Below are positions 9,616 to 47,898 of a DNA stretch of 64,000 bases, in pieces. The stretch lies in NCBI GenBank assembly GCA_964535655.1, contig CAZHTP010000001.1, positions 186,862 through 250,861 of the forward strand. Direction: 5' to 3'. The position numbers were made by a program, and so were the translations under genes. The DNA is from an uncultured Gammaproteobacteria bacterium. Its GTDB lineage: Bacteria > Patescibacteriota > Microgenomatia > JALYQM01. The stretch's first letter is position 1; each line of letters starts with the position of its first letter. The notes beneath the pieces are model-generated. The model saw only the letters and a list, made by a program, of their open reading frames with translations, had not been told where the DNA came from and made no database searches.

Positions 9616-9620
9616 CTTTT

Positions 9621-10451: not shown

Positions 10452-10462
10452 GTAACTAAACT

Positions 10463-14219: not shown

Positions 14220-14239
14220 CTTCCCAAAGAATTATTTGT

Positions 14240-15559: not shown

Positions 15560-15574
15560 TTCTATCATGAATAT

Positions 15575-15967: not shown

Positions 15968-15968
15968 T

Positions 15969-16964
15969 ATGGAGAAATTACTGGGCTTAGTTTTACTTTC
16001 ATTTTTCATCACTGCATTGCTTGTGGTACCGTTTATTGATTTACTTTACAAACTTAAATTTCGTCGAACTCGAGAAAAAGCAAAGGGTTCTGAAAAGAGT
16101 CTTTTTGATAAGCTGCATGGGCATAAAATTGGTACACCGGTAGGAGGAGGCCTGCTGGTTATTTTTGTAACCGTGCTCCTTTCTATCTTTTTGCCACCGG
16201 CTATGGGAGTTGATGGAGGAGGGCGTCTTTGGTCATTACTTTTTGCCTTGATTGGTTTTGGTATTCTAGGTCTCTATGACGATATTCATAAGTTTTTCCA
16301 ATTTAAACAAACGGGTGTTTGGGGGTTAAAAATGCGTTGGAAGTTTGTCATTCAGTGGGTTATTGGTTTGGGGTTAGGCTATCTTCTATACACGTTAGGA
16401 TATGACAATATTTATATTCCTAAGCTGGGTAACTTTTTGCTTGGCCCCGCCTACATAGCTTTTGCTGCTTTTGTTATTGTTTCTTTTTCTAATGCATTTA
16501 ATATCACTGACGGGCTTGATGGTCTAAGTGGAGGGTTGCTTATTATCTGTTTATTGGGATTTCTAGTGATTGCAAACGCTCAAGTTGACCCCACATTACA
16601 AATTTTTCTTGGGATATGGGTTGGTTCAATGTTTGCTTTCCTTTATTTTAATGTCTATCCTGCGCGTATCTGGATGGGAGATGTCGGAGCTTTGGCTTTT
16701 GGCGCAGCACTCGGTGTGGTAGCTCTTTTGACCGCTAAAGTTTTGGCTATGGCAATTATAGGGGGATTATTTATTATCGAAGTTGGTAGCTCAGCAATTC
16801 AGCTTCTTTCGCTTCGTTTTCGTAAGAAGAGAGCATTTCCTATTGCACCACTGCATTTATATTTGCAGACTATTGGTTGGGAAGAGCCGAAAGTTGTCAT
16901 GCGATTCTGGTTGATCGGTGCCATTTTTGCAATCTTTGGTGTGTGGTTGGCAACGATAAAATAA
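15969..16964 (+). CDS. mraY: Phospho-N-acetylmuramoyl-pentapeptide transferase MraY
   Basis: NITDGLDGL motif; polytopic membrane protein. Confidence 0.9.
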   Translation: MEKLLGLVLLSFFITALLVVPFIDLLYKLKFRRTREKAKGSEKSLFDKLHGHKIGTPVGGGLLVIFVTVLLSIFLPPAMGVDGGGRLWSLLFALIGFGILGLYDDIHKFFQFKQTGVWGLKMRWKFVIQWVIGLGLGYLLYTLGYDNIYIPKLGNFLLGPAYIAFAAFVIVSFSNAFNITDGLDGLSGGLLIICLLGFLVIANAQVDPTLQIFLGIWVGSMFAFLYFNVYPARIWMGDVGALAFGAALGVVALLTAKVLAMAIIGGLFIIEVGSSAIQLLSLRFRKKRAFPIAPLHLYLQTIGWEEPKVVMRFWLIGAIFAIFGVWLATIK

Positions 16965-16973
16965 TGGTATAGT
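16965..16973 (+). promoter_or_regulatory. Extended -10 TGGTATAGT, 9 nt upstream of the ftsW ATG
   Basis: Sits in the 18-nt gap after the mraY stop; no SD. Confidence 0.4.
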
Positions 16974-16982
16974 AGTACCATC

Positions 16983-18137
16983 ATGCAAGAAGAAGCTAAG
17001 TATAAGAAATATTTTATTCCCTTTTCGTTTGCTACGTGTGCCCTATTCTTATCATTGTTTGGTATCTTAATGATTTATGATGCGTCTTCATTTTCTAAAG
17101 CGCAGTCACAGATGATCTGGTTTATATTGGCGATTTGTTCTGGGCTCTTTTCTATGAGTATCGACTATCGATTTTGGAAAAAGCTTTCGTGGCCAATGTA
17201 TATTTTTTCGGTTATTTTATTGATACTCGTTCTTATCCCTGGAGTGGCTGACAAAACCCTTGGCGCGCAGCGCTGGATTCGCTTACCAGCGTTGCCATTC
17301 CTGGGGTCGGTGGGGTTTCAGCCTGCAGAAATTGCGAAAGTTTCAATGGTTGTTTTTTTTGCTTCCTGGTTTTCTAAACCTGGTCGCAAAAGAGACGGAA
17401 AGACGTTTGGTGGTTTTTTATTCTTTCTCGGAATTGTAGTTGGACTGGTTATGCTTGAGCCTGATCTCGGAACAACACTTATTACCGTTTCATCAATAAT
17501 TGTTATTTATATTTTAGCGCGTGAGCCATTGAAATATATCTACCTGTTGCTTCCAGCTATGTTTTTAGGTGTGGTAATACTTATTCTTATTGCACCTTAT
17601 CGTCTTGAGCGATTACAAAGCTATTTTCATTTCTGGAGCGATCCGTTTAACACGCCAGATAGCCTTGGTGCGACGTATCATATTCGCCAAGCAATTATAG
17701 GTATTGGCTCAGGTGGTCTGCTTGGAACCGGTCCCGGACAATCACGACAAAAGTATGGTTATTTACCCTTTGCCGAGACTGATTCTATTTTTGCTATTAT
17801 TGGGGAAGAGTTTGGTTTTTTCGGAGTCACTTTATTTTTGATTGTTTTACTCTTATTTATGCGACAGGGATTTCTTATTGCCGATCGAGCCGATGAAGAT
17901 TTTGGCCGGTTAATGGCAGCGGGTTTTATTACATGGTTTGGAGTGCAGATCTTTCTTAATATTGGGGCAATGTCGGTCCTTATCCCGTTTGCTGGAGTGC
18001 CGTTACTGTTTGTTTCCTATGGAGGTTCGGCCCTTGTTGTAGGATTTATTGCTGTCGGTATTTTAATGAATATTGCCTTTTCGACGAGTAGGAATCAAGG
18101 GATCCGAACGTCTGGCGGAGCTCGAAAACGAGGATAA
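16983..18137 (+). CDS. ftsW: SEDS peptidoglycan glycosyltransferase FtsW
   Basis: 384 aa, polytopic. Conserved SEDS segments (PDLGT, GGS..SYGGSAL). Confidence 0.85.
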   Translation: MQEEAKYKKYFIPFSFATCALFLSLFGILMIYDASSFSKAQSQMIWFILAICSGLFSMSIDYRFWKKLSWPMYIFSVILLILVLIPGVADKTLGAQRWIRLPALPFLGSVGFQPAEIAKVSMVVFFASWFSKPGRKRDGKTFGGFLFFLGIVVGLVMLEPDLGTTLITVSSIIVIYILAREPLKYIYLLLPAMFLGVVILILIAPYRLERLQSYFHFWSDPFNTPDSLGATYHIRQAIIGIGSGGLLGTGPGQSRQKYGYLPFAETDSIFAIIGEEFGFFGVTLFLIVLLLFMRQGFLIADRADEDFGRLMAAGFITWFGVQIFLNIGAMSVLIPFAGVPLLFVSYGGSALVVGFIAVGILMNIAFSTSRNQGIRTSGGARKRG

Positions 18138-18145
18138 TACCTTTT

Positions 18146-18154
18146 TGATACAAT
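18146..18154 (+). promoter_or_regulatory. Extended -10 TGATACAAT, 6 nt upstream of the murG ATG
   Basis: TACAAT at 18149-18154, ATG at 18161. Confidence 0.4.
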
Positions 18155-18160
18155 GCACCT

Positions 18161-19258
18161 ATGAGAATTGTTATTATCGGTGGTCATATTACTCCTGCTT
18201 TAGCAATGATGGAGGCTTTAAAGAAGCTTGATCCGTCGGTTGAATTTTTCTTTATCGGAAGAAAACATACGCGAGAAGGGGATACCGCGCTTTCCGCCGA
18301 ATACCTCATGATGAAGGAGAGAAGGATCCCTTCGTATACGCTTACAACGGGTCGATTACAACGTACTTTTACTCGATATACGATACCTTCACTCGCAAAA
18401 GTTCCCTATGGGTTTTTTCAGTCGATTCGTATTTTAAATAAAATTAAACCGGATCTGATCTGCTCTTTTGGAGGATATCCAGCAGTACCTGTTGTTATGG
18501 CAGGATGGTTCTTGCGAATACCGGCAATTACCCATGAACAAACTCTAATTCCAGGTTTGGCAAATAAAATTATTTCCCGCTTTGTAAAAACTATAGCGCT
18601 TTCATTTGAAGATACGAGGAAATGTTATCCGAACGTGCATACCGTGGTAACAGGGAATCCCATCCGATCTGAAGTTGCGAATCCTTTAGGAAACTTTGTA
18701 CTTAATAAAAATGGATTGCCTGTGGTTTATGTTACAGGAGGAAATCAAGGTTCACATCCGATTAATGATTTAGTATTTACCATCCTTGCGGAGTTATTAC
18801 AAATCGCCCATGTTATTCATCAGACTGGTAATGCAACATTCTTTCATGATTATGAAAAAGCTCAGGCTTTACAAATTGAGCATAAAGGAAAACATAACGG
18901 CAGTTACTTTGCTTTTGATTATGTGAAGCCTGACATCATTGGTGACGTGTTTTCTCTATCGGACGTGGTGGTAAGTCGTTCAGGTGTAAACACGCTCTGT
19001 GAGCTGCTGTTCTTGGGTAAAAAAGCAATTCTTATTCCCATACCTAACCATAAGGAACAAGAATATAACGCTGATTTTTTCTCTCAAAGCGGTCTCGGTG
19101 TTGCGTTAATGCAGGAGCGACTTACCGGGGAGAGGTTACTTAAATTAATTCAAGAAATGCTAGCCAAAAATGTTTCGACGGAAGATTTGGCGAAGGCGCG
19201 TTTAATGGCTCATCCAGATGCGGCACTTTTACTTGCTAAACTAGTTCACTCAATGTAG
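18161..19258 (+). CDS. murG: UDP-GlcNAc:undecaprenyl-PP-MurNAc-pentapeptide GlcNAc transferase MurG
   Basis: MRIVIIGGHITPALA N-terminal G-loop; GT28 two-domain length. Confidence 0.85.
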   Translation: MRIVIIGGHITPALAMMEALKKLDPSVEFFFIGRKHTREGDTALSAEYLMMKERRIPSYTLTTGRLQRTFTRYTIPSLAKVPYGFFQSIRILNKIKPDLICSFGGYPAVPVVMAGWFLRIPAITHEQTLIPGLANKIISRFVKTIALSFEDTRKCYPNVHTVVTGNPIRSEVANPLGNFVLNKNGLPVVYVTGGNQGSHPINDLVFTILAELLQIAHVIHQTGNATFFHDYEKAQALQIEHKGKHNGSYFAFDYVKPDIIGDVFSLSDVVVSRSGVNTLCELLFLGKKAILIPIPNHKEQEYNADFFSQSGLGVALMQERLTGERLLKLIQEMLAKNVSTEDLAKARLMAHPDAALLLAKLVHSM

Positions 19259-19280
19259 TAAAAATGCTATAGTTTAGGAT

Positions 19281-20216
19281 ATGCGCCATCCCAGACCTCA
19301 AAAGAAACACGCCTTTCATCGAACTCCAATAGTATCAAAATCGGCACGCAAGATCCCCATGGCAACACCGGTAAAGGGGGAGCGCAGACCATTAAAAATA
19401 TCTTTTTCAGGCATTACAATTTTCGTTAGCACTTTCTTAACGCTGCTTAAAGCGCGATTCTTGGTCTTTCTTTCAGTGTTAATTTTAGTTGTTTTTATTA
19501 TTATTTTTTTCTTTACATCACTTCTTGATATTAAAAACGTAGCATATCGATTTAAAGATGAAGCTGAAGATTGTGTGTCAGAGTCTGCGATCAAGGAGCA
19601 TTATTTCAAAAAGCCAGCAAAAGTTTGGGCTCACTATTCGTATGATGGTAGTTCTTTGAAGAAAAAGTTCCCATGCTTGGATGATGTTTCATTCAACTGG
19701 AATCCATTTAATTTCAACACTTTGTCTATTACTGTTGAATCGGCTAAACCGGTTGCTGAAATTACTATCGTCCGCATTGATGCTGCTAATCTGGGAGGCT
19801 CAAGTGATCAATATTTTATTTCTCAGGCACTTGGAGAAGAGACTGGCTATCTTACTCGTGACGGAAACTTTATTACTCTCGTTGCTAAGCCTTTTGTACC
19901 AAAGTTTAAGTATCGAATATTAAAGAATCAAAAGGTTAAAGATATTCATATATCTGTACATGAGTTGGAGAAACTTTTGCAGATACAAAAATATTTTGAA
20001 ACTGAATTTGATACTATTGCTATTCCTGATGTTGCAAGTGATGGATCGGTGCGCCTTGCTACTCCTTTACTTGAGGAAATTTATATTACATTGCATGATG
20101 ATTTAGCTGTGCAGTTGGGATCTTTACAAGCTATTTTGGAAACGTCTACAATAGATAAGAAGAAGATACATTTAATCGATTTGCGATTTGGTAACCCAGT
20201 GATAATTTTTAGGTAG
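19281..20216 (+). CDS. ftsQ: FtsQ/DivIB-like cell division protein (start may be an internal ATG near 19359)
   Basis: Basic N-terminus, one TM helix, then a POTRA-like periplasmic domain; position between murG and ftsA. Sequence similarity is weak, so the call rests partly on synteny. The extended -10 TGCTATAGT (19265-19273) lies 7 nt before the 19281 ATG. Confidence 0.5.
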   Translation: MRHPRPQKKHAFHRTPIVSKSARKIPMATPVKGERRPLKISFSGITIFVSTFLTLLKARFLVFLSVLILVVFIIIFFFTSLLDIKNVAYRFKDEAEDCVSESAIKEHYFKKPAKVWAHYSYDGSSLKKKFPCLDDVSFNWNPFNFNTLSITVESAKPVAEITIVRIDAANLGGSSDQYFISQALGEETGYLTRDGNFITLVAKPFVPKFKYRILKNQKVKDIHISVHELEKLLQIQKYFETEFDTIAIPDVASDGSVRLATPLLEEIYITLHDDLAVQLGSLQAILETSTIDKKKIHLIDLRFGNPVIIFR

Positions 20217-20254
20217 ACTTGTATCTTGGTTCAATTAGTTTTATAGTATTCAAT

Positions 20255-21577
20255 ATGGCTGACGCACGAGTAATAGCAGGTATTGATATCGGTTCTTCAA
20301 AAGTTTGTACGATTATCGGACAAGTTAATGAAGAAGATCATACCGTTAACATTTTAGGGGTTTCTACTTCACCTAGCCGCGGCATACGTAAAGGCCAAGT
20401 TGTAGATATAGTAGCCGCGGCTTCTTCAGTTCTTGAAGGTTTAGAAGCTGCGCAGCGAATGGCAGGCTATACTTTGTCTTCTGCGTACATATCGGTTGGC
20501 GGATCTCATATTCTTTCTCAGAATTCACATGCCGTTGTGGCGATTGCTCACCCTGAAGCAGAAATTACCAACGAAGATGTTGCTCGGGTTAGTGATGCAG
20601 CAAAGGCTATTACATTACCCTCTTCACGCGATATTATTCATGTAATCCCGCGTATGTTCATTGTTGATGGTCAAGATGGTATCAAGGATCCTATTGGGAT
20701 GGCTGGCATACGGCTTGAAGTAGATACTCATATTATTCATGGTGCGACGATTAGTATTAAGAACTTAACTAAGTGTATTAATGACATGAAGCTTGATGTT
20801 GAGTCATTTGTCTTTAGTGGGCTTGCTTCAGCGAATGCTGTTGTAACTGATACAGAAAAAGAGCTTGGTGTCGCGATTGTGGATATTGGTGGCGGAACTA
20901 CCGATATTTGTATGTATGTTGATGGCGCACTTGCTCACTCTGCAGTTTTACCAGTTGGAGCCAAAAATATCACTAACGATATCGCGATTGGCCTTCGAGT
21001 TTCACTTGATGCAGCTGAGCAAATTAAATTATTACTTTCTAAAGAACCTCGATTGTTAGTGGAGCCCTTAGGAAATGTGGTAGGCCATAAACCTTTTGAT
21101 CGTGAGGAACGTAAAAAATTGGATGAAATTGATCTTAAGCCATTCCATTTGGGAGAAGAGTTACAATCGGTTTCCCGTAAATTATTGTTAGAGGGGATAA
21201 TTCGACCACGATTGGAAGAAATTTTTGCTCATGTTGCAATGGAATTTAAAAAGTCTGGGTTTCATCACGCAATCCCTGCTGGTGTTGTTGTATGTGGAGG
21301 AGGAGCGCAGACAGTTGGATTAGTCGAAGTTTGTCGAAAAGTAATGGGATTGCCGACTCGGGTCGGTAACCCGACAAGAGTAACTGGTTTGATTGATGAA
21401 ATCCAAAGCCCTGCTTATGCTACTGCAGTTGGATTGTTATTATACGGAGCAGAGGAAGAAGATTCTGTGGTTGAAACACATCATGGTTTCTCAGTTCCCG
21501 GTATCAGTGTTTTGCGTGAAGGCGGGGAAGGAATGATTTCTCAAGTGATGAAGTGGATAAAAGGCTTCTTACCCTAG
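20255..21577 (+). CDS. ftsA: Cell division protein FtsA
   Basis: Actin-fold phosphate motifs (IAGIDIGSSKV, VDIGGGTTD). The ORF track starts at 20219; the ATG at 20255 follows TTATAGTAT. Confidence 0.9.
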   Translation: MADARVIAGIDIGSSKVCTIIGQVNEEDHTVNILGVSTSPSRGIRKGQVVDIVAAASSVLEGLEAAQRMAGYTLSSAYISVGGSHILSQNSHAVVAIAHPEAEITNEDVARVSDAAKAITLPSSRDIIHVIPRMFIVDGQDGIKDPIGMAGIRLEVDTHIIHGATISIKNLTKCINDMKLDVESFVFSGLASANAVVTDTEKELGVAIVDIGGGTTDICMYVDGALAHSAVLPVGAKNITNDIAIGLRVSLDAAEQIKLLLSKEPRLLVEPLGNVVGHKPFDREERKKLDEIDLKPFHLGEELQSVSRKLLLEGIIRPRLEEIFAHVAMEFKKSGFHHAIPAGVVVCGGGAQTVGLVEVCRKVMGLPTRVGNPTRVTGLIDEIQSPAYATAVGLLLYGAEEEDSVVETHHGFSVPGISVLREGGEGMISQVMKWIKGFLP

Positions 21578-21591
21578 ATACTTGTACTGTT

Positions 21592-22002
21592 ATGGGGACT
21601 TCAGATAACGCATATTCTTACGTTGCATTTTTGGCTTCAACAGTTTATTTTGTTGGGATTTTAGTTGGTCGAAATGAGGAATTAAAACTTAAAATTGAAA
21701 ATGTTTATTCGACTGATTTTGTTTTTTCTTTTGTAAAAGAATTAAAAAAGAAACTAACTGATTCTCAGAATAATAAATTAAGTGATTTAAGTTCTCTGAA
21801 TGTTGCATTTAAGTCTGTATATGATTATTTCTCAAATAATATCTCAGTAGAAATTCTTAGTGCTTTTGATCAAGATTCACTGGAACTGAACTTACGTAAG
21901 GCCATTTCGGTTACTTTACAGGTATTAGAAGGAGAAGAAAGAGATCTCTATAAAAAACAATTATTCGAAATTTATAATAGATATCGCTTAACTGATCTTT
22001 AA
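21592..22002 (+). CDS. Hypothetical small membrane-anchored protein between ftsA and ftsZ
   Basis: A 137-149 aa ORF in very AT-rich DNA, where stop codons should be frequent, with an N-terminal hydrophobic helix (AFLASTVYFVGILVG). I recognise no homology. Confidence 0.4.
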   Translation: MGTSDNAYSYVAFLASTVYFVGILVGRNEELKLKIENVYSTDFVFSFVKELKKKLTDSQNNKLSDLSSLNVAFKSVYDYFSNNISVEILSAFDQDSLELNLRKAISVTLQVLEGEERDLYKKQLFEIYNRYRLTDL

Positions 22003-22103
22003 TACATTTTTATAATTTGTTTCCCTTGCATTAACAGTTGTGGCATGTTATTCTCCCAATACGTATTCGTTTATTTTTCTCTTAAGTTTGATCAAATTTT
22101 CCT

Positions 22104-23375
22104 ATGTTTATAAAACCTGATGTACATCGTTTTGCAAAGATTAAAGTAATTGGTGCAGGTGGTGGTGGATGTAATGCGCTTGCGTCCATGATTCAGCTTC
22201 AACAGATTCAAGGTGTTGAATTTGTTGCGGTAAATACTGATGCACAAGCACTGTTAAAAAACCCTGCTGAACAGAAAATACAAATAGGAAATGAAGTCAC
22301 TCGCGGGCTTGGGGCTGGTGCAAATCCTGAAAAGGGACGACAAGCAGCAGAGGAATCTTCAGACGAAATCAAAAAAACCCTCACTGATTCTGATATGGTT
22401 TTTATTACCGCAGGTATGGGAGGTGGAACAGGGAGCGGATCAGCACCGATAATTGCGTCTTTGGCGAAGGAAATAGGATGTTTGACTGTTGCTGTTGTTA
22501 CAAAACCATTCATGTTTGAAGGTGCACGGCGTATGTCTATCGCTGAAGAAGCAATTGATCAGCTAAAAGATAAAGTTGATGCGCTAATTGTTATACCAAA
22601 CCAAAGAATTCTCGATGTTGTAGGGCGAGATACCTCTATTCTTGAAGCATTCAAAATTGTTGATTCAGTTTTGGGACAAGGTGTACAGGGCATTTCTGAT
22701 TTAATTACTATGCCAGGCTTAATTAATGTTGACTTTGCTGATGTGCGAACCATTATGACAAACGCTGGTTCTGCGTTAATGGGTATTGGAAATGGTAAGG
22801 GTGAAAACCGGGCTGTAGCCGCTGCTAAATCTGCTATTTCTTCGCCGCTGCTTGAACTTTCTATTGAAGGAGCAAAGGGAATACTCTTCAATATCGTTGG
22901 TGGCCCTGATATGTCGATGCTTGAGGTTGATGAGGCTGCAAAGATTATATCTCAGACTGCTGATTCTGATGCGAATATTATTTTCGGTGCCTCGATTGAT
23001 GAAAAGATGACCGATCAAATCAGAATTACAGTTGTGGCTACCGGATTTGATGAAGAAAAAAAGAAATTTTCTGAAATGGTCTCGAGCCGACTCAAGAAAC
23101 CGGTAGGATACATGGATTTTTCATCGCAGGCGCCAACCCGTGATGTGAATCAATACGCACAACAACCTTTTGGCAGTTCATCGACTTCGTCAACTCATCC
23201 CTCATCGTATCAATCAGGAATTCCGTATCAAAAACCGATACAGGATCAACGGCCGCCAGTTCAGCATAATCCCCAGCCGCCAGTGTACCAGCCGCAACAA
23301 CAACACAATTCGCAGCAGGAACAAATGCAGGATGATGATATTGATATACCAACATTTTTGAGAAAATCTTCTTAA
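22104..23375 (+). CDS. ftsZ: Cell division GTPase FtsZ
   Basis: GMGGGTGSG tubulin signature. Q/P-rich linker, then a C-terminal peptide DDDIDIPTFLRK that is conserved as the FtsA-binding peptide in FtsZ proteins. Confidence 0.95.
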   Translation: MFIKPDVHRFAKIKVIGAGGGGCNALASMIQLQQIQGVEFVAVNTDAQALLKNPAEQKIQIGNEVTRGLGAGANPEKGRQAAEESSDEIKKTLTDSDMVFITAGMGGGTGSGSAPIIASLAKEIGCLTVAVVTKPFMFEGARRMSIAEEAIDQLKDKVDALIVIPNQRILDVVGRDTSILEAFKIVDSVLGQGVQGISDLITMPGLINVDFADVRTIMTNAGSALMGIGNGKGENRAVAAAKSAISSPLLELSIEGAKGILFNIVGGPDMSMLEVDEAAKIISQTADSDANIIFGASIDEKMTDQIRITVVATGFDEEKKKFSEMVSSRLKKPVGYMDFSSQAPTRDVNQYAQQPFGSSSTSSTHPSSYQSGIPYQKPIQDQRPPVQHNPQPPVYQPQQQHNSQQEQMQDDDIDIPTFLRKSS

Positions 23376-24832: not shown

Positions 24833-26083
24833 ATGCATGACTATTTTTTCGTATTAGGTCGATCTATCGACTTGTGTCGAGCAGAATTCGATGCTCTGAT
24901 CCATTCGTATAAACCTCAAAATGAATTTGAAGTTGGTCCGGTGGTGGTATGTTCTACCGATTCCGAAGTTCCCCTTAAACCGCTTTTAAAGACAGCGGGT
25001 GGTTTGGTAAAGGCTGGTTTAGTTGTCGATTGGTTAAATGCTGATTGCTCCCTCGATGAGCTCGTCACCAAGATTGTTTCCATTCTTCGTACTCACTTTT
25101 CAGATAATAAGAAATTTGCTTTTGGTATTAGTTTGTATGGCACTAAAACTCACCAAGTATCTCCTATAAACTTACACAAAGAAGTTAAGGATGCCCTTAG
25201 TGCTCAAGGAAATCCTTCCGAATTTGTTCTTCCGGAAGGACAGGAACTTACTTCAGTACAACTCGAGAAATACCGCCTTATGGGAGAAAAGGGGGTTGAA
25301 ATAGTCTTAATCTACTCCAAAGATTCCCTGATTGTCGGTTTAACTAAGGCTGTTCAACCATTTGAGACCTGGTCCCAAGCAGATTATGGTCGTCCTTTCC
25401 GAGACGCTAAATCAGGAATGTTGCCACCTAAAGTGGCACGAATGATGATTCAAATTGGTCTTGGTGCATATTATTCAATTTCCCGCAGAGAAGAGGCTCC
25501 CGTAATTTTTGATCCTTTTTGCGGTAGTGGAACTGTTCTTACCGAGAGTCTTCGGCTAGGGTGCCGAGCTGGTGGATCAGATAATTCCGAAAAGGCAGTG
25601 CATGACTCGATTGAGAATGTTACTTGGATTCGTTCTTCTTCATTGTACTCTGGAGAAGATGAACAATCTTCATTTTTTCCCTATACACGGGAATATAATG
25701 TTGAGATAGCGGTGCCAATATTTCAGTCCGATTCAGCACACATCGCTACTGTTTTAACGCCTAAGAGTGTCGATATTATTGTCACGGAGAGCTACCTGGG
25801 GCCAGCGTTTAGTGAGGTACCAACTCCTGGTAAAATTGACCGGATTATTAAAGGGCTTGAGAAGCTTTATATCGGTTCATTTAAGACGTTCCACACGGTT
25901 TTAGCCGATAAAGGAATTATCGTATTTGCCGAGCCGGAATACTTTATGCATGGAAAGAGCTATAAAGTAGGTATTATTGACAATTGTGAGCGTTTTGGCT
26001 ATACTGCAATACGACAACCGATACTTTACAAGCGCGAGAATGCGTTAGTGGGGAGAAGAATCGGAATACTAAAGAAGAAATAG
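24833..26083 (+). CDS. Putative RNA methyltransferase-like protein (COG0116/THUMP-associated class I SAM methyltransferase fold) inserted between rplU and rpmA
   Basis: Motif I DPFCGSGTVLTESL..G, preceded by LPPKVARMMI (compare APLKETLAAA in RlmL/Trm11). Where motif IV should be (DIIVTESY), the expected (D/N)PPY is replaced by TESY. Confidence 0.5.
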   Translation: MHDYFFVLGRSIDLCRAEFDALIHSYKPQNEFEVGPVVVCSTDSEVPLKPLLKTAGGLVKAGLVVDWLNADCSLDELVTKIVSILRTHFSDNKKFAFGISLYGTKTHQVSPINLHKEVKDALSAQGNPSEFVLPEGQELTSVQLEKYRLMGEKGVEIVLIYSKDSLIVGLTKAVQPFETWSQADYGRPFRDAKSGMLPPKVARMMIQIGLGAYYSISRREEAPVIFDPFCGSGTVLTESLRLGCRAGGSDNSEKAVHDSIENVTWIRSSSLYSGEDEQSSFFPYTREYNVEIAVPIFQSDSAHIATVLTPKSVDIIVTESYLGPAFSEVPTPGKIDRIIKGLEKLYIGSFKTFHTVLADKGIIVFAEPEYFMHGKSYKVGIIDNCERFGYTAIRQPILYKRENALVGRRIGILKKK

Positions 26084-34153: not shown

Positions 34154-35332
34154 ATGGGCCATATGTCTGAGTTAAATAATGGTTCTTCTTGGTCGCGCGA
34201 GCAAATGATTCCAGAAAAAGGTAAAAGGGAACGGAGGTTGTTACCAATAGCCTTAACAGGATTAGCCCTAGCAAGGTGCGGGTCACTGACCGCTCCAGAG
34301 CCCGCACCGCAGATACAAGCAATCAGTGTCCCAAGCATGCCTACTGCAGAAAGCCGTTCGCCAGATTTCTTGAGGGTGGATAGTCACCCAGGCTTTGAGC
34401 TAGAAGCGCCTTATGACTATTGTCCAGTGCTAGCCGCTTTGATACCGCAGCCAACAGATGCGAGCGCTGAGTCTCCTACAGCAGTTGCAATGACTGAGCC
34501 TGAGGCTAGTGAAACACAAGAATTTATAGGTAATTCTGATGGCATTGCTGCCTGGAGTCGAGAAATTAATCTGAGTAGAATGGTAGGGTATAGACCCGGT
34601 CTTGAGGAACTCCATGTTGCAATTGTTCCTGTGGGGTATTCGAACCCTAGGGCCGAGATGCCAAAATTCCTAGAGTACTTAAATCTTTTTTATGGGGACT
34701 ATCCGATTAATTTTTACTTTACTGACAAAAGTGTGCCTATTGGAATAACTTTTGGATCAGATTCGTCCGCTCGATACACCGATGGGGAAGAACATAAGCG
34801 GGTTGAAAACGCCTTAAACCAGTATGGAAAAACTGATGTGGTTATATACATGACAAATAGTGGAGAAAATTATGGTGATTATGTATACGCCAATCCAGAT
34901 CAAGGTATTTCTGCATCTGCAATAGTAGTTTCCGGGGAACGAGAAGATACGCATGTTGTCCTTCCACACGAGTTGGGCCACTTTGCGTTAGATGATGGAT
35001 ATCATAGTGAGGTAGGTGCGTATTGGGCAGCAAGATCTACAGAGATTTTTACGGACGTGCGAAGGCTTCCTCCTAACGTAGCTACGGTATATAGGCGAGA
35101 TCCTTCTAAATATCCTATATACTCAACACCCGCCACTTGTGGGAAAGACCCTATTTTTCGGTGGAGACCTGATGGGCAATACGACCTGATGTACTATCCT
35201 TACTACAAGTCAAACGGAGAAATAATAGAAGCGCACAGTAAAGGCATTCCGCTCTTAAACCCAATGCAAAAAAGTATATTTGGCAGTGCTGTAGAGGCCA
35301 AAATTGCTGAGAATAAAAGAAAAACGCATTAG
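34154..35332 (+). CDS. Putative secreted zinc metalloprotease-like protein (HExxH)
   Basis: HELGHFALDDGYH motif, an N-terminal hydrophobic signal-like segment, and a GC-rich 5' third that differs from the window's composition. An alternative start is the ATG at 34163. Confidence 0.45.
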   Translation: MGHMSELNNGSSWSREQMIPEKGKRERRLLPIALTGLALARCGSLTAPEPAPQIQAISVPSMPTAESRSPDFLRVDSHPGFELEAPYDYCPVLAALIPQPTDASAESPTAVAMTEPEASETQEFIGNSDGIAAWSREINLSRMVGYRPGLEELHVAIVPVGYSNPRAEMPKFLEYLNLFYGDYPINFYFTDKSVPIGITFGSDSSARYTDGEEHKRVENALNQYGKTDVVIYMTNSGENYGDYVYANPDQGISASAIVVSGEREDTHVVLPHELGHFALDDGYHSEVGAYWAARSTEIFTDVRRLPPNVATVYRRDPSKYPIYSTPATCGKDPIFRWRPDGQYDLMYYPYYKSNGEIIEAHSKGIPLLNPMQKSIFGSAVEAKIAENKRKTH

Positions 35333-41663: not shown

Positions 41664-44228
41664 TTACATCTCTATTGATTGGCCTTCAGTTAGTTTTCCT
41701 TCGAGAATTAGTGTGGCGATTTTTGACTCAAGCTGGTCTTGGATTTCTCGTTGTAATGGTCTTGCGCCTAGCTCAACATTGTAGCCATTTTTAATGAGTG
41801 CCTCAATGGTTTGTGGTGCGAAGGTAATGGTAATCTTTTTGGTGTCGTAGAGTTGCTGTGCTATCTTACCAAGTTGTATTTGTACTACTTTCTCGATGCT
41901 TTGGCGAGTGAGTGGTTTAAATAAAATTATTTCATCGAAGCGGTTAAGAAATTCGGTGCGGAAGTAGGGTGATAAGATGTGGTATATCTCTTTTTGAATT
42001 TGTTCGTACTGATCGGGTGCTGTTATTGTTTGAAATCTTTTCGTAATCTCATGGGTACCGGCATTGCTGGTAGCTATAATAATTGATTCGTTGAATTCGA
42101 CGGTGGAACCATATGCGTCGGTTAATCGTGCATCGTCAAGTACTTGCAAAAATAAATCGAGGACCTGTGGATGAGCTTTCTCGAGCTCATCAAGAAGCAG
42201 TAAACTATATGGTTGTTTGCGAATGATCTCAGTTAGAGGAGCGAGACTAGTGCTCCCCTCAGAGTTGCCGATAATCCTCGCGACGCTATCCTGATTCTGA
42301 TATTCACTCATATCCAAACGAATCATTTTTTTCTCACTACCGAAATATATTTTTGCAAGCGTTTTTGCCATCTCAGTTTTTCCTACACCAGTAGGCCCAA
42401 CAAAAAGAAAGGAGCCGATAGGTTTATTAGTATTGCGAAGGCCAGATCTGTTGCGACGGAGGTTTTCAGAGATCGCATGTACCGCGTCAGTCTGATCTAC
42501 TATATATTTTCTAAACTCATCTTCCATATGGAGCAGAGTTTGCGCCTCATTTTTTTCAATATCACCGACAGGTATTGTTGTTTGTGCTGTAACGATTTTA
42601 TCAACAAGTTGCTCCAGGATTGGAACTCTTTTACCATATCGTGTTATCCATAGATTTTGAGAGTGATCATTGTAGGCAACAATCGCGATATCATCAATAA
42701 GCGTTAGGGCTTTCTCAGGGAAAAAACCTTGGTGAATATAATTTTTAGCATACGTTACGATTAGATCGAGTATAGGGTAGGGGAAAAAGAGTGCATATTT
42801 TTCTTCAAGTTGTAGTGATGCGGTATGAATGATTGATGCCGTTTCGTTTTGATCTGTTTCTGGGACTTTTATATGAGTGAATTGCCCTAAGAACATGGGA
42901 CTATTCTGTTCGAGTGTTTTATATTCTTTTGGTGTTATTGCTCCAATGATAGTTAATTTCCCGTTAGTTATGGGTTTTTGTAATAATGAAAAAAGATTTA
43001 TGCCTTCTTTTGTTTTAGTTTCGATAGCTGCACTGAAATCATTTAAATAGAGTATGATATTGGTGCTTCGTTCAATTTCATCGATAATCAGTTCTACGCG
43101 CTCTTCAAATGCTCCTTTTTCTGTTGTTCCTGCAAACAATCTACCAATATCGAGATCCATTATTCTTTTACTCCATAACGGACCATGGGTTGCCCCAGTA
43201 TTAATTGCATGAGTGATTTCGCGAACAAGTGTATCTTTCCCAACACCAATTTCACCAATTAAAAGCACATTGGCATTTTGAGGTTTTTGTAGCGCTTTTT
43301 CAATAGCTTTAATAATTTCGCTGCGAATAACTCGTTGCGGTTCATTGGCTACTGCTGAATTTAAATCATATCCGTATTGGTTAAGAATAGGTGTAACTGT
43401 TCCTTGCCAGGTGCGATTGGTTCCTCCACCTACAAGAAGCTGGTAATCGGAATCCCATAAACGGGGAGGATACAAGAGTGTGAATTCGTATTCTTCCCAG
43501 GAAATGAAGAGGTGAAATAGATGAAGGTCAAGTTTATTCTTTCGCAAAATTACTTCAATTTCCGCTCCATATAAATGCATTATTGCAGCAAATACGTGTA
43601 CAGTTCTGATTATTCGTACATTTTGCTCACGTACCAGGGTATATATTTCCACTAGTAAATTCTTTCCGTTTGTCTGATGCGAAGCTAAGACCGGCCAAAT
43701 CTCGTTCATTGGGAGCAAAGATCTTTGAATAAAATGTTTAACATCAGGAGAGTCTTTTAATACTGATAGAAAATTTGGATTACCAAGATTTTTAATGAGC
43801 GTGCGAGCTTCTTTGTTGCAATAGGGTAAGATATCATAATTAGTTGCTTTAATAGGGTGAAGTTGGTAGGCTTTTTTGCGGGCAATAGCAATAAAATACA
43901 TTAATCCTATGAATGGTGTAATTAAAAACAGGGGGTACCTAAATGCAACAGCTAATGAACTTATCCAAATTAAAGGAAGCGTTAAAAGTATAATTGAACT
44001 TATAGTGAAAACGAGTGCGCCAATTATTATTACAGAAGTTCGTGTAACTAGTGAGATACATCTTCCTACAAAGGTACGATCACCATAAATTGGTGTAAAG
44101 AAATAACGTGCATTGGTTGTAATGCCAATTAAATCTTCAATTTTTGCTAAAGCATTATTAATGAAATGAAATTGAGCAATTAAAGCGCGATAAAAATACC
44201 AGGAAAAAAACTCTGTTATTGTATTCAT
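41664..44228 (-). CDS. Membrane-anchored Clp-like double AAA+ ATPase with a degenerate first nucleotide-binding domain
   Basis: 854 aa. Residues roughly 60-125 form 2-3 hydrophobic helices where a Clp_N domain would normally sit. D1 has Walker A GEIGVGKD (Thr replaced by Asp) and Walker B LYLNDF (DE replaced by ND). D2 is canonical (GPTGVGKT, LLLLDELEKAH, sensor ATSNAG, GARPLQR). No IGF/LGF ClpP-docking loop is seen. Confidence 0.75.
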   Translation of the reverse strand: MNTITEFFSWYFYRALIAQFHFINNALAKIEDLIGITTNARYFFTPIYGDRTFVGRCISLVTRTSVIIIGALVFTISSIILLTLPLIWISSLAVAFRYPLFLITPFIGLMYFIAIARKKAYQLHPIKATNYDILPYCNKEARTLIKNLGNPNFLSVLKDSPDVKHFIQRSLLPMNEIWPVLASHQTNGKNLLVEIYTLVREQNVRIIRTVHVFAAIMHLYGAEIEVILRKNKLDLHLFHLFISWEEYEFTLLYPPRLWDSDYQLLVGGGTNRTWQGTVTPILNQYGYDLNSAVANEPQRVIRSEIIKAIEKALQKPQNANVLLIGEIGVGKDTLVREITHAINTGATHGPLWSKRIMDLDIGRLFAGTTEKGAFEERVELIIDEIERSTNIILYLNDFSAAIETKTKEGINLFSLLQKPITNGKLTIIGAITPKEYKTLEQNSPMFLGQFTHIKVPETDQNETASIIHTASLQLEEKYALFFPYPILDLIVTYAKNYIHQGFFPEKALTLIDDIAIVAYNDHSQNLWITRYGKRVPILEQLVDKIVTAQTTIPVGDIEKNEAQTLLHMEDEFRKYIVDQTDAVHAISENLRRNRSGLRNTNKPIGSFLFVGPTGVGKTEMAKTLAKIYFGSEKKMIRLDMSEYQNQDSVARIIGNSEGSTSLAPLTEIIRKQPYSLLLLDELEKAHPQVLDLFLQVLDDARLTDAYGSTVEFNESIIIATSNAGTHEITKRFQTITAPDQYEQIQKEIYHILSPYFRTEFLNRFDEIILFKPLTRQSIEKVVQIQLGKIAQQLYDTKKITITFAPQTIEALIKNGYNVELGARPLQREIQDQLESKIATLILEGKLTEGQSIEM

Positions 44229-44317
44229 AAATCTAGTGTAATGGGTTTAGTGCGAGCAGTAAAGGATTAGTGAATATTGTGTTTGGGACGGTTTTTTTGT
44301 ATGATGGGCGGAGTTTT

Positions 44318-44391
44318 GGACTCTTAGCTCAGTTGGTTAGAGCGTCACATTGACATTGTGAAGGTCAGAGGTTCGAGTCCTCTAGGGTCCA
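44318..44391 (+). tRNA. tRNA-Val (anticodon GAC)
   Basis: Hand-folded cloverleaf: acceptor GGACTCT/AGGGTCC, D-loop AGTTGGTTA, anticodon loop TTGACAT, T-loop TTCGAGT. Confidence 0.8.
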
Positions 44392-44410
44392 CATATAGAG
44401 TAAAAGCAGA

Positions 44411-44438
44411 TTGATGTTTAAAACAAACGTAGTATACT
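44411..44438 (+). promoter_or_regulatory. Promoter TTGATG, 16 nt, TATACT driving the thrS leader
   Basis: Hexamers at 44411-44416 and 44433-44438. Confidence 0.45.
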
Positions 44439-44444
44439 CATTCC

Positions 44445-44602
44445 TACGAAAGCGCTTGTACTTGGATTACCAACCCGAGGAGCTGGAAACGAGTGATTCA
44501 CGTAATGAATTAAGAGTGTCCCTTAGGGGGAATCGAAGTGGAACCGCGGTAGAAAAGCCGTCTTCGAGCATTATTAGATTAGTGCTTGAGGACGGTTTTT
44601 TT
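44445..44602 (+). promoter_or_regulatory. T-box riboswitch leader of thrS (Thr specifier ACC, then A)
   Basis: T-box core AATCGAAGTGGAACCGCGG (44531-44549) matches the AAnnnGGGUGGnACCGCG consensus, with UGGA as in the B. subtilis thrS leader. Candidate specifier ACC-A at 44469-44472. Terminator hairpin GCCGTCTTCGAGCA...TGCTTGAGGACGG plus T7 (44558-44602), then SD AAGGAGG. Confidence 0.7.
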
Positions 44603-44620: not shown

Positions 44621-46381
44621 ATGAAAACGGAGGAATATTTACCCTTGCTTCGCCATAGTGCGGCTCATTTGCTTGCAGCAGCAGTGATGGAACTCTATCC
44701 GGAGGCTAAAAGAACTATTGGTCCGGCTATCGAGAATGGTTTTTACTATGATTTTGATTTTGGTGATGTGAAAGTATCCGATGAGGATCTCGCTAAAATT
44801 GAAGCAAAAATGCATGAAATTGTAACCTCGTGGAATGGATTTGAAAAAGAAGAGGTATCCGTTGAGGAAGCAAAGAAGCGATTTGCAGATAATCCCTATA
44901 AACTTGAACTCATTGAAGAGTTTGCGCAGGAAGGTCAACAGTTAACTATATATAAGAGTGGTGCTTTTGAGGATCTCTGCCGAGGTGGACACTCGGCCAA
45001 TCCTCAGAAAGATCTGGTTGCCTTTAGATTGCTTTCTTTGGCCGGAGCATATTGGCGGGGGAATGAAAAGAATAAAATGTTGACTCGCATTTATGGTACT
45101 GCCTTTCCTACACAAAAAGAGCTTGATGCATATATTACGCAACAGGAAGAAGCTAAGAAGCGTGATCATAAAAAATTAGGTAAGGAACTAGATTTATTTA
45201 TTTTTTCCGACCTGGTCGGTAAAGGATTGCCGTTATGGACGCCCAAGGGTTCAACCGTACGACGCGAATTGGAACGATTTATTGTTGATGAAGAGCTTGA
45301 TCGCGGCTATTTGCATGTATATACGCCTGATATTGCTCAAATCAAATTATATGAGACTTCGGGACACTATCCATATTATAAAGATTCAATGTATGCGCCT
45401 ATTGTTATTGATGATGAACAATTCATGCTTCGTCCGATGACATGTCCTCATCATTTCGAAATTTATCGATCTCGCCCAAGAAGCTATAAAGAACTTCCTA
45501 TGCGTATTGCTGAGTTAGCTAAATTGTATCGTTATGAACAATCCGGAGAGTTATCGGGACTGCAAAGAGTACGTAGTTTCTGCCTTGCTGATGCACATAT
45601 TATTACGCAGCCTGAGAAGGCAGAGGATGAAATTAATCAGGCTTTAGATCTGATTGAATATGCAGCAGGCATCTTTGGATTAAAAGCAAACGAAGATTAT
45701 TGGTATCGTTTATCTTTAGGCGATCGTTCCGATGATACTAAATACTTTAAAAGCGATGCAGAGTGGGATAATGCCGAAGATATTTTGCGCAAAGTTTTAG
45801 GATCACGTTCAGTTCGCAATGTCGAAGCCCCCGGAGAGGCTGCTTTTTATGGTCCAAAAATTGACGTTCAAATGAAAAATGTTAATGGTAAGGAAGATAC
45901 CGCTTTCACTGTACAATATGACTTTGTTATGCCGAAGCGATTTCAGCTTAAATACATCGACGAGCATGGACAGGAGCTTGAGCCGGTAGTTGTTCATCGT
46001 TCTTCAATTGGCGCAATCGAGCGTGTAATAGCGTTCCTTATTGAAAAATATGGTGGTGCATTTCCAGCTTGGCTTGCGCCTGTTCAAGCGGTAGTTATTC
46101 CAATCGCCGATCGTCATGCTGAATATGCCCAAGAATTGGCAGCTGAACTGAAAAAGGCAAAAGTTCGGGTAGATGTAGATTCCCGTTCAGAGTCGATGCA
46201 ATCTAAAATACGAGATGCTCAATTGCAAAAAGTTCCTTATATGCTCGTCGTAGGGGATAAAGAGATGGAAGCGAAAGGTGTGGCAGTGCGTAAACGTAAT
46301 GGAAAAAATGGAAGTCTTCAGCCATTCTCTGAATTTAAAGCTGAATTGCTCAGAGAGATCGCTAATAAAGAAAATAAGTAA
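44621..46381 (+). CDS. thrS: Threonine--tRNA ligase (lacks the N-terminal TGS domain; begins at the editing domain)
   Basis: RHSAAHLLAAAV..GFYYDF editing-domain start, class II catalytic motifs, C-terminal anticodon-binding domain. Confidence 0.9.
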   Translation: MKTEEYLPLLRHSAAHLLAAAVMELYPEAKRTIGPAIENGFYYDFDFGDVKVSDEDLAKIEAKMHEIVTSWNGFEKEEVSVEEAKKRFADNPYKLELIEEFAQEGQQLTIYKSGAFEDLCRGGHSANPQKDLVAFRLLSLAGAYWRGNEKNKMLTRIYGTAFPTQKELDAYITQQEEAKKRDHKKLGKELDLFIFSDLVGKGLPLWTPKGSTVRRELERFIVDEELDRGYLHVYTPDIAQIKLYETSGHYPYYKDSMYAPIVIDDEQFMLRPMTCPHHFEIYRSRPRSYKELPMRIAELAKLYRYEQSGELSGLQRVRSFCLADAHIITQPEKAEDEINQALDLIEYAAGIFGLKANEDYWYRLSLGDRSDDTKYFKSDAEWDNAEDILRKVLGSRSVRNVEAPGEAAFYGPKIDVQMKNVNGKEDTAFTVQYDFVMPKRFQLKYIDEHGQELEPVVVHRSSIGAIERVIAFLIEKYGGAFPAWLAPVQAVVIPIADRHAEYAQELAAELKKAKVRVDVDSRSESMQSKIRDAQLQKVPYMLVVGDKEMEAKGVAVRKRNGKNGSLQPFSEFKAELLREIANKENK

Positions 46382-46425: not shown

Positions 46426-47898
46426 ATGAAAGATGAACAATCTAAAAGTCTAGGTGACAGTGTATATCATGATCTCGCAGAGCCACTTTGGAAGAATAGT
46501 TTTGCGATCGGATTTCGGAGAATGGAGCAAATACTTGCTGATGCTCAGATTAATACTGACCAGGTATTGCAGCAGCAACGAGCGCTTTTTGTTACAGCGT
46601 TCAACAGTAATCATTCTCAGGAGGGGTTTTGCGGTAGAGCGCAGGTTGTTTTCCGAAATGTTAGTGAGAGACTAACGCAGCTTGATAGGCACGATCTGGT
46701 TGAGGAGCTTGTAGCTGTTGCCAAGAGAGCCTCGGAAAGATCTAATCTTTTGTTGCATGATTTGGCTGAAAGTGGAGGAACTTTCCATGCTACTGAACAA
46801 TCATTTATAACTGACGGGACCATTATGATAGCTGGAGAAGCGATGGAAGCATTTGCTTCAACTCCTGACTACTTTTCGGCTATGGCAAAACTCTTTGGTT
46901 GTACAGAAGAAGTTGCACCTATTTTGAAAGATTCATTTTTTAAGGGGGCACATTTAGATGAAGATGATATTCAAAATATTGTTAATGCACAGCAGGCTGG
47001 GGATGATACAGTTGATATTCTCGTAGGTTTTTTACTTAGACAGCAGAGAAAATATCGATTCCCTACAACTCAGGATTATGAGTTTGTACCTGGAAAATCT
47101 GACGAATATAATCAGCAACGAAAGATAAAAGCAATTCGTGATGCTGCATATTGTGTTGGCTCAGTGATACGGGTTGTGAGTATCCTGTGCCAAGACGAAA
47201 TCTCGGCAATCTCAGATATCTCCGCTTGTGAGGACCCTATAGCTTTGTTCTTGAAATGTACTAGCAAAGAATATACTGCTGAGCAAGTAGATGTAATTAA
47301 AAGGATTGCTCTTGCCCATTGTACTCATGGTTTAAATTCCGGAGAGTTGACGGCTCGGTTATCTGGTTCTGTACGTACAACATTTCCACGCGGTATCATG
47401 GCGAGTTTACTTGTGCGCAGTGGTATTGTGCATGCTGGTGCGTTGAGTGAATGTATGATGCAAACGTCAGACTACTTGCAATCAGAGCTATCGGCGGAGG
47501 AATTTGTTAGCCTACTATTTTCCTCTCACGGAAAGTTATATGGATTTGGCCATCGGATACATAAGATCGATGCTTCGGATTCATCGGAGGTGCTTGGACG
47601 GGATCCTCGTGTACATTTTTACATCTCCTGTGCTAGAGAGGCATTCCCTGATAAAGCAGATGTTATTGATCGGCTTGTTGAATATGCAAAGGCCATACGT
47701 AAGAATAAGCCTACGCTTGGTGCTAATACCGACTTTGGGGCAAGCGTCTTATTTAATTGCCTTGATCTTTCGCCTCAAGTGGCAAGCGGGTTTTTTACTG
47801 CTTTTCGAATCCCTGGGATTTGCGCGAATATTGTGAATGAGTTACAGATTAAGTCTAATTCTAGAAAACCACCATTCCCTCCAGTGTTACCATATTAA
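46426..47898 (+). CDS. Citrate synthase-fold family protein, divergent, with an N-terminal extension of about 100 aa
   Basis: GFGHRIHK...DPRV (citrate synthase His box, with about 9 inserted residues) and a C-terminal block ANTDFGASVLFNCLDLS..FTAFRIPGICANIVNE that lines up with PNVDFYSGIILKAMGIP..FAMARTVGWIAHWSE of GltA. The start is 7-10 nt after TATAGTATAAT (leaderless). Confidence 0.5.
   Translation: MKDEQSKSLGDSVYHDLAEPLWKNSFAIGFRRMEQILADAQINTDQVLQQQRALFVTAFNSNHSQEGFCGRAQVVFRNVSERLTQLDRHDLVEELVAVAKRASERSNLLLHDLAESGGTFHATEQSFITDGTIMIAGEAMEAFASTPDYFSAMAKLFGCTEEVAPILKDSFFKGAHLDEDDIQNIVNAQQAGDDTVDILVGFLLRQQRKYRFPTTQDYEFVPGKSDEYNQQRKIKAIRDAAYCVGSVIRVVSILCQDEISAISDISACEDPIALFLKCTSKEYTAEQVDVIKRIALAHCTHGLNSGELTARLSGSVRTTFPRGIMASLLVRSGIVHAGALSECMMQTSDYLQSELSAEEFVSLLFSSHGKLYGFGHRIHKIDASDSSEVLGRDPRVHFYISCAREAFPDKADVIDRLVEYAKAIRKNKPTLGANTDFGASVLFNCLDLSPQVASGFFTAFRIPGICANIVNELQIKSNSRKPPFPPVLPY

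Follow-up and report, generated by a model that had tools for sequence, protein, structure and literature searches.

A stretch of 64,000 nucleotides of contig CAZHTP010000001.1, referred to throughout as the window, carries on its minus strand at 41664-44228 an open reading frame (ORF) for a protein of 854 amino acids (aa) that belongs to a conserved and undescribed branch of the class-I Clp/Hsp100 ATPases, specific to Patescibacteria. The protein joins a predicted membrane hairpin to two AAA+ tiers, of which the first (D1) would be catalytically dead and the second (D2) active, and in neither tier does the pore-1 loop have its canonical tyrosine. Our overall reading, which we hold with about as much belief as doubt, is that this is an ATPase powered by D2 which probably does not thread polypeptides and which acts on or with its membrane module, in a manner that may be likened to the Torsins. 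The order of its parts is almost certainly a cytosolic leader, a hairpin of two transmembrane (TM) helices, a cryptic Clp_N domain, a conserved linker, the dead D1, the catalytic D2 and finally D2-small. These features are listed below from the N-terminus to the C-terminus, with the positions that they occupy in the window; "AF2" stands for AlphaFold2 and "HMM" for hidden Markov model.

41664-44228, minus strand: the whole ORF, a putative membrane-integrated Clp/Hsp100 paralogue (Pfam, NCBIfam, PDB sequence search, homologues).
44064-44228, minus strand: conserved leader, predicted to be cytosolic, aa 1-55, with the pattern F..WYF.RA...ED.IG...R.FF.PI[FY]GD...GR (small-protein HMM, AF2).
43875-44063, minus strand: predicted two-helix TM hairpin, aa 56-118 (hydropathy, AF2 helices, charge pattern).
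43464-43856, minus strand: cryptic and highly divergent Clp_N domain, aa ~125-255, with eight helices over aa 139-252.
43359-43463, minus strand: linker between the N-terminal region and D1, aa 256-290, WD.DY....GGGTNRTWQGTVTPILNQY (conservation).
42609-43358, minus strand: D1 AAA+ module with both its subdomains, large and small, aa 291-540 (HMMER against ClpB D1, weak Pfam matches).
43233-43256, minus strand: D1 Walker A, GEIGVGKD (aa 325-332), with threonine changed to aspartate relative to GEPGVGKT (family alignment).
43098-43133, minus strand: D1 pore-1 loop, AGTTEKGAFEER, with tyrosine changed to glutamate; the canonical form is AG[AST]KY[RK]G.FEER.
43035-43058, minus strand: D1 Walker B, IILYLNDF (aa 391-398), with DE changed to ND, so that ILFIDELH reads ILYLNDFS.
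42876-42899, minus strand: D1 arginine-finger site, PMFLGQFT, both arginines lost; ERRFQ reads LGQFT.
41919-42608, minus strand: D2 AAA+ large subdomain, aa 541-770 (Pfam AAA_2, 2.3e-49).
42375-42398, minus strand: D2 Walker A, GPTGVGKT.
42225-42275, minus strand: D2 pore-1 loop region, IIGNSEGSTSLAPLTEI, canonical form LIGAPPGYVGYEEGGQLTE; tyrosines lost and three residues deleted (HMMER to 1qvr).
42180-42203, minus strand: D2 Walker B, LLLLDELE.
41934-41951, minus strand: D2 arginine finger, FLNRFD, with R763 invariant.
41667-41918, minus strand: D2-small, aa 771-854, including sensor-2 GARPLQR at aa 821-827 (Pfam, 1.7e-20).

The ORF is intact, with 854 codons and a stop, and it aligns with homologues of 850-855 aa; being collinear with these from end to end it is free of frameshift or assembly artefact, a possibility that had been raised in a preliminary description of the gene made from its letters and translation without database searches. 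The full-length homologues (P0002-P0013) share 36-72% identity with the protein. That description had recognised a two-AAA+ Clp architecture across the 854 aa, and this is backed by Pfam, by the closest PDB sequence match, which is ClpB (1qvr, 1e-111), and by fold comparison. In Pfam the protein matches AAA_2 (PF07724) at aa 602-767 and ClpB_D2-small (PF10431) at aa 773-853, AAA_lid_9 is matched weakly (4e-5) and D1 otherwise gives only weak generic P-loop matches (AAA_16). The nearest solved relatives are ClpB, ClpE, ClpC and ClpA, and the best NCBIfam models are those for ClpB (TIGR03346, 431 bits against a cut-off of 1232) and ClpA (TIGR02639, 412 bits against a cut-off of 993), so that the protein is Clp-like and yet the equivalog of no named Clp. 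An AF2 monomer model built from 34 family sequences has a pLDDT of 84 and a pTM of 0.78, and when it is searched with Foldseek it retrieves ClpC, ClpB and ClpA subunits at E values of 1e-47 to 1e-39 with both tiers aligned and a target-normalised TM-score of ~0.8 across ~580 residues. Judged as a class-I Clp/Hsp100 protein it has an AAA_2-type D2 followed by ClpB_D2-small, an AAA+ fold with AAA_lid_9 in D1 and a Clp_N domain, but it lacks the pore-1 tyrosines (TEKG in D1, GSTS in D2) and a competent D1 (GKD, ND and GQF).

The substitutions in both tiers were placed from a HMMER alignment to the ClpB of T. thermophilus together with alignments of the family. D2 would appear to be a catalytically intact ATPase site, with G611-T618, D680, E681, T720, N722 and R763 invariant in the large subdomain and R823 and R827 in D2-small; Walker A and B, the sensor-1 TSN, the trans-acting arginine finger NRFD and the sensor-2 GARPLQR stay invariant even in relatives at 24-30% identity. 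D2 had been described as fully canonical, which holds for the ATPase site and fails for the pore-1 loop, where GAPPGYVGY reads GNSEGSTSL, GYVG having become GSTS with the loss of three residues.

D1 was thought to be dead on the strength of GEIGVGKD and NDF, and the alignments not only confirm these substitutions but indicate that the case was understated, as the pore-loop tyrosine and both arginine fingers have gone as well. HMMER aligns aa 265-515 to ClpB D1, and within this, as in the family alignments, the pore loop AGAKYRGEFEER reads AGTTEKGAFEER. The glycines and the lysine of the P-loop remain, and the residue after the lysine is acidic in three separate D1-dead subfamilies: GK[DE] in subfamily A, to which the protein belongs, GKE in subfamily B and GIGKE in a third group. 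Since D1 is constrained, with a mean identity of 0.56 within the subfamily, we regard it as a maintained, and not a decaying, putative pseudo-ATPase.

The wider family was examined through 74 full-length members aligned with canonical ClpA-, ClpB- and ClpC-like sequences. The tyrosine column of the D1 pore loop is aromatic in none of the 74, and none has a G[YFW][VIL]G motif in D2, where the loop is deleted in nine members and without any aromatic residue in a further 47; the canonical sequences in the same alignment keep both KY[RK]G and GY[VI]G. As the substitutions are conserved across the family they are not an artefact of a single sequence. The preliminary description had asked whether the TM N-terminus and the D1 substitutions are conserved, and both do recur in the full-length homologues; across the family, 36 members have intact catalytic motifs in D1, whereas these have gone completely in 29 and in part in nine. 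Hydrolysis in D1 is dispensable in the family, given these 29 complete and nine partial losses. A rough neighbour-joining tree sets the family in one clade apart from the ClpA, ClpB and ClpC references, and the D1-dead lineages are gathered mainly in a single region of the tree. Loss of the pore-loop tyrosines and possession of a membrane anchor would thus be common to every member examined, and the death of D1 would be a later event that marks the branch to which the window's protein belongs. The ORF is intact in every lineage examined, and because a canonical Clp of 864 aa that has Clp_N, AAA_lid_9, AAA_2 and D2-small lies at 5814-8408 in locus L010, 2.7 kb from the family member P0014, the family is an extra paralogue and not a replacement for the usual protein.

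An exhaustive profile search, for which only the first 290 aa were used, returned 383 representative clusters, 89 of them at E <=1e-10. By comparison a scan of the GTDB species representatives with the N-terminal alignment gave three loci only; this understates the family because the patterns used were specific to subfamily A, and the profile search is the better measure. The preliminary description had held that such a protein was not a described class. We agree, in that no Pfam or NCBIfam model describes a membrane-integrated Clp family and no paper was found, in the literature on Clp and AAA+ proteins of the Candidate Phyla Radiation (CPR) or Patescibacteria, on an Hsp100 integrated in the membrane, an Hsp100 clade without the tyrosines or the leader-TM family described below. 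Clp and AAA proteins go unmentioned in a paper on the genetics of Patescibacteria (PMC10633639). The contigs that carry the closest relatives (L006, CAZGHS010000003.1; L007, CAYOFQ010000001.1) are labelled "uncultured Gammaproteobacteria", which we rejected as taxonomy. The label looks wrong because the threonyl-tRNA synthetase of the window is 87% identical to that of one such contig, of 1.57 Mb, and the named proteins closest to the window's enzyme, at 67-70% identity, without exception bear the name "Patescibacteria group bacterium". The window is itself from an organism of the Patescibacteria (CPR), and for this group a single contig of 1.57 Mb would also make a large genome.

At the N-terminus a block of two to three TM helices had been proposed, of which the hydrophobic block stands (the Kyte-Doolittle maximum within aa 56-118 is 2.73, and AF2 places helices at 53-94 and 99-117) and the third helix does not. 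What is predicted instead is a hairpin, with TM1 at about aa 65-94 (including a conserved P85..W88), a turn at aa 95-99 and TM2 at about aa 100-116, and throughout the subfamily this takes the form of a charge-free helix of 30 residues, a turn of five and a charge-free helix of 17 between flanks rich in lysine and arginine. The mean counts of these two residues are 2.7 before the hairpin, 0.6 in the turn and 4.3 after it; with the counts high on both flanks and low in the turn the pattern fits a topology with both termini inside, which would place the ATPase in the cytoplasm. The leader that precedes the hairpin has W10, E31, D32, F44, P46, D50 and G55 invariant and is modelled by AF2 as helices at 2-34 and 36-41; no Pfam or NCBIfam model matched it.

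The TM block had also been thought to replace Clp_N, and here the preliminary description was mistaken, as Clp_N is retained beside the hairpin in a form that has diverged beyond recognition by sequence. A search of Pfam with the N-terminal 300 aa and with aa 118-270, at E values up to 10, gave no match, and the identity of the domain came from the structure. A profile-profile comparison (hhalign) aligns the second repeat in register, weakly, with a P value of 1.7e-4, and the distant relative P0014 has a TM block together with a Pfam Clp_N match at the aligned position. Clp_N is the least conserved domain, with an identity of 0.32. The linker that follows has the highest conservation in the subfamily, with a mean pairwise identity of 0.71 vs 0.64 for the large subdomain of D2. 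Its residues G269, N271, G276, V278, T279 and P280 are invariant and aa 268-276 are predicted to be disordered (AF2 pLDDT <50); it could be an element that binds a partner or lies at the mouth of the pore.

The strongest functional clue would seem to be one that the preliminary description missed, namely that the first ~118 aa, i.e. the leader and hairpin, also exist as separate membrane proteins of ~115 aa. The profile of the first 290 aa matches many stand-alone proteins of about 105-160 aa made of leader and hairpin alone, and among its 150 best matches listed ~59 are stand-alone proteins of 77-157 aa. With a profile made from the small proteins the count comes to at least 349 clusters (90% identity), all of them annotated as "hypothetical". 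Those that are named all come from the CPR (Parcubacteria, Paceibacterota, Liptonbacteria and "Patescibacteria group"), and no Pfam or NCBIfam model matched the small proteins. The HMM of the stand-alone proteins in turn matches the window's own reading frame (stop to stop, 41667-44246) with an E value of 1.3e-25. The leader-TM-Clp family can be recognised by a leader motif, W.[YF]...ED..G...R.[FL]F.P[LI][FY].D...GR, by the hairpin and by a Clp that is fused to them or adjacent, and the 854-aa protein has each of these.

Where the two parts are unfused, the small gene lies directly upstream of a leader-less Clp-like gene, as in L003/L004 (P0037), L009 (P0026), L013 (P0046), L010 (P0014) and L012 (P0051). 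Starting independently from three small proteins, a Clp-like gene (844-850 aa) was found next to the small gene in all three cases (L014, L015 and L016) with an overlap of 20 nucleotides (nt), and these Clp-like proteins have a TM hairpin of their own and a dead D1 (GE.GIGKE / IPDI) and lack tyrosines in their pore loops. Eight of eight unfused loci have the small gene adjoining the Clp-like gene at its start or overlapping it there, by 20-23 nt where the overlap was measured. Together with the fused forms this adjacency is a classic fusion/fission signature, and on that basis the leader-TM protein and the Clp-like ATPase would be parts of one machine. In the window itself there is neither a stand-alone leader-TM paralogue nor a second Clp gene.

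No other neighbour is common across the subfamilies, and two arrangements were considered and set aside. In subfamily A the gene order thrS / clp / rseP-frr-tsf-rpsB is conserved, and a functional link to RseP, an M50 protease, was rejected as the genes lie in convergent orientation and no other subfamily shows the arrangement; we treat the adjacency as inherited synteny. Subfamily B has a packed operon of a TIGR00375/PHP-like gene, the small gene, clp, LytR_cpsA_psr and a Mur ligase, in which the TIGR00375-family genes bear the Pfam label MJ0043_C (L003 6180-7685, L009 6434-7684, L013 4435-5682) and are called PHP-like from a HLHSKYS-type motif. This too was rejected as a functional link, other subfamilies having uracil-DNA glycosylase (UDG) upstream and PolX or MFS downstream. 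A UDG gene lies directly upstream of the pair formed by the small gene and clp in L014 (4345-4986), L015 (4319-4978) and L016 (4335-4976), and nearby in L008 (3466-4029), which may reflect lineage synteny or a further conserved neighbour. A scan for promoters and terminators around the window's gene gave nothing above shuffled expectation.

From these observations we would propose that on the cytoplasmic side of the membrane the protein forms a ring, probably hexameric, since the trans-acting arginine finger of D2 and D2-small are both conserved. ATP would be hydrolysed solely in D2, leaving D1 as a structural or assembly tier, and the cycle would probably not serve the processive threading of polypeptides because neither ring has a canonical gripping pore loop, the loops being degenerate and in the family dispensable. 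It may instead power the conformational switching or remodelling of an assembly in the membrane whose building block is the leader-TM module, which is fused in the window's protein and would elsewhere be supplied by the translationally coupled upstream gene, so that the working mode would be closer to that of Torsin than to those of ClpB, FtsH or Msp1.

Several points weigh against this proposal. The absence of the canonical tyrosines is no proof that translocation does not occur, as aliphatic residues (ILG in subfamily B) or other loops could grip a substrate. D2, unlike Torsin, keeps its own arginine finger, and a fully competent motor would be wasteful for a pure switch. Assembly into a ring is predicted from motifs, hydropathy and a monomer AF2 model, and insertion into the membrane from hydropathy, charge bias and the same monomer model. 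Furthermore the family was gathered mainly via the leader profile, and any impression that fusion is the majority state is biased by this sampling.

The alternative that survives best, although we consider it doubtful, is a threading unfoldase or extractase tethered to the membrane and powered by D2, in effect an FtsH without its protease or an enzyme like Msp1. It would be in keeping with the Clp/Hsp100 fold, the intact D2 site and D2-small, and with the membrane anchor; the retained Clp_N could recruit substrates and in subfamily A the gene adjoins that of the membrane protease RseP. The extraction or unfolding role that the preliminary description had suggested is nevertheless weakened by the loss of pore-1 tyrosines from both rings in 74 of 74 members, and by a D2 loop that is short, polar and variable in length and has been deleted altogether in nine lineages. 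Nor do the remaining points help it greatly, as rseP is convergent, non-operonic and found beside the gene in subfamily A only, and Clp_N is the least conserved domain. The NCBIfam and Pfam scan of the protein found no protease domain, whether of the M41 type that FtsH has or any other.

Decidedly improbable in our view is a motor like that of the PTEX translocon, whereby the ring would dock on, or itself form, a channel of 12-24 TM helices from the leader-TM module and move a non-standard cargo (protein, glycan, lipid-linked or nucleic acid) across the membrane. Fusion or translational coupling joins the ATPase to a two-TM module that the ring would multimerise, the extremely conserved linker would sit at the mouth of the ring nearest the membrane, and the subfamily-B operon contains genes for LCP (LytR_cpsA_psr) and a Mur ligase, all of which speak for such a motor. 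Against it, the D2 loop has no conserved pore-lining residues, aromatic or basic, and the envelope genes are not conserved as neighbours beyond subfamily B. It would seem very improbable indeed that the protein is a scaffold without enzymatic activity, or a paralogue in decay, and has no function that depends on ATP; the dead D1, the degenerate pore loops and the divergence of Clp_N might be taken that way, but the catalytic residues of D2 remain invariant down to 24-30% identity, the ORF is intact in all lineages examined and both linker and leader are strongly conserved. That it is a partner of ClpP, i.e. a membrane-bound protease of the ClpA or ClpC type, is barely credible despite the "ClpA" and "ClpC" annotations of its relatives and a D1-D2 junction as short as that of ClpA, given that 73 of the 74 members have no xGF/L docking loop and that its NCBIfam scores fall so far below the ClpA and ClpB cut-offs (412 vs 993 and 431 vs 1232).

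The absence of that docking loop, and of a long M-domain coiled coil, had been noticed in the preliminary description and both observations hold. Between sensor-1 and the arginine finger of D2 the ClpP-docking tripeptide is missing from the protein and from 73 of 74 relatives, the ClpA- and ClpC-like references carry IGF, VGF or LGF at this site, and the sole xG[FL] in the 854 aa sits within TM2. At the M-domain insertion site the protein has 46 residues, vs 39 in ClpA-like, 96 in ClpC-like and 157 in ClpB-like sequences of the same alignment.

Set beside known systems, the protein shares with ClpA, ClpC and ClpB the core of Clp_N, D1, D2 and D2-small, and its D2 aligns over the full length at ~40-50% similarity; its short D1-D2 junction is like that of ClpA. 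It differs from all three in the leader and two-TM hairpin, the dead D1, the missing pore-loop tyrosines and a Clp_N that cannot be recognised by sequence, and it has neither the M-domain of ClpB and ClpC nor the ClpP loop of ClpA and ClpC. With FtsH, Msp1/ATAD1 and the archaeal LonB it has in common an N-terminal TM anchor that would hold an AAA+ ring at the membrane. These enzymes belong to the classical AAA or Lon clades and have a single ATPase tier with aromatic pore loops, together with a protease domain in FtsH and LonB, and the window's protein has none of these features. HSP101 of Plasmodium, the motor of PTEX, keeps its pore-loop tyrosines; it is soluble, docks on EXP2/PTEX150 and threads cargo, whereas the protein described here would itself be inserted in the membrane and has no such tyrosines. 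The SMAX1/D53 proteins are likewise derived from Hsp100 and have kept Clp_N, and the structure 9kkx is weakly matched in sequence as well as in fold. These proteins are eukaryotic co-repressors, soluble and nuclear, without TM helices and with a degenerate ATPase function, in contrast to the D2 of the window's protein, which is clearly intact in its catalytic residues.

The closest parallel in working mode may be with the Torsins, which are related to Clp/HSP100, lack aromatic pore loops, have a membrane-associated hydrophobic N-terminus and, it is believed, work through dynamic assembly or remodelling and not through threading (PMC5425593). A Torsin has a single AAA+ domain, is supplied with its arginine finger by LAP1 or LULL1, and is lumenal and eukaryotic, being found in endoplasmic reticulum as well as in the envelope of the nucleus. 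The window's protein by comparison has two tiers, its own D2 arginine finger (R763), a bacterial origin and a predicted orientation towards the cytoplasm. With its two tiers and intrinsic arginine finger it is not a Torsin, and the resemblance would be one of possible working mode by analogy, not of membership; nothing points to direct descent.

The Clp/Hsp100 proteins are textbook threading unfoldases in which the pore-loop tyrosines are considered indispensable, and a bacterial clade with an invariant D2 site, tyrosine-less rings, a predicted membrane anchor and a genetic tie to an unannotated small membrane protein would point to a different use of the Hsp100 motor. The family would also offer a tractable bacterial counterpart to the enigmatic Torsins. 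Patescibacteria have tiny genomes in which few non-essential genes are kept, and their envelope and host-interaction biology is largely unknown, so that a two-part membrane ATPase found throughout the lineage would be a candidate for a role in either. One could go further and suggest, although we think it unlikely as a whole, that the leader-TM protein and the Clp ring without pore loops make up an unrecognised CPR-specific machine in which threading has been abandoned and hydrolysis in D2 drives or gates an oligomeric TM assembly. Such a machine would be encoded by two genes in most of the unfused lineages sampled and by one fused polypeptide here, and its assembly could, for example, import host-derived molecules or build envelope or surface structures for episymbiosis. 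If it exists, no earlier Hsp100 of bacteria would be known to work without threading, and the Clp clade would have a new working mode. The current database labels mislead or say nothing, as the relatives are annotated at source as ClpA, ClpC or AAA family ATPase and the partner as a hypothetical protein.

A number of other features of the window were observed. A tRNA-Val (GAC) gene lies at 44318-44392 on the plus strand, in the intergenic stretch from which the Clp-like gene and thrS (44621-46381) diverge. It is followed by a match to the T-box leader (RF00230) at 44402-44600 on the plus strand, upstream of thrS, which is full-length (model positions 1-219) but sub-threshold at 33.6 bits and an E value of 6e-6. 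This leader contains the T-box-like AGTGGAACCGCGG and then a 20-bp terminator hairpin with a run of T at 44553-44600, ~20 nt before the thrS start, and probably represents a T-box attenuator of divergent form from a CPR genome. In the 490-aa ORF at 46426-47898 (plus strand) the match to the citrate synthase domain (PF00285, 3e-22) is confined to the C-terminal part of that domain, at aa 267-474, and the N-terminal half of the ORF is unassigned; Patescibacteria are normally without a tricarboxylic acid cycle and a protein like citrate synthase is therefore unexpected. Two ORFs of ~400 aa each on the plus strand, at 24833-26083 and 34154-35332, lack any match in Pfam at E values up to 1e-5. Finally, a division and cell-wall (dcw) cluster occupies 6185-23375 on the plus strand, with genes for an FtsI-type penicillin-binding protein, Mur ligases, MraY (Glycos_transf_4), FtsW and FtsZ; at 16-18 kb, where the genes for the membrane proteins MraY and FtsW lie, the AT skew is strongly negative.

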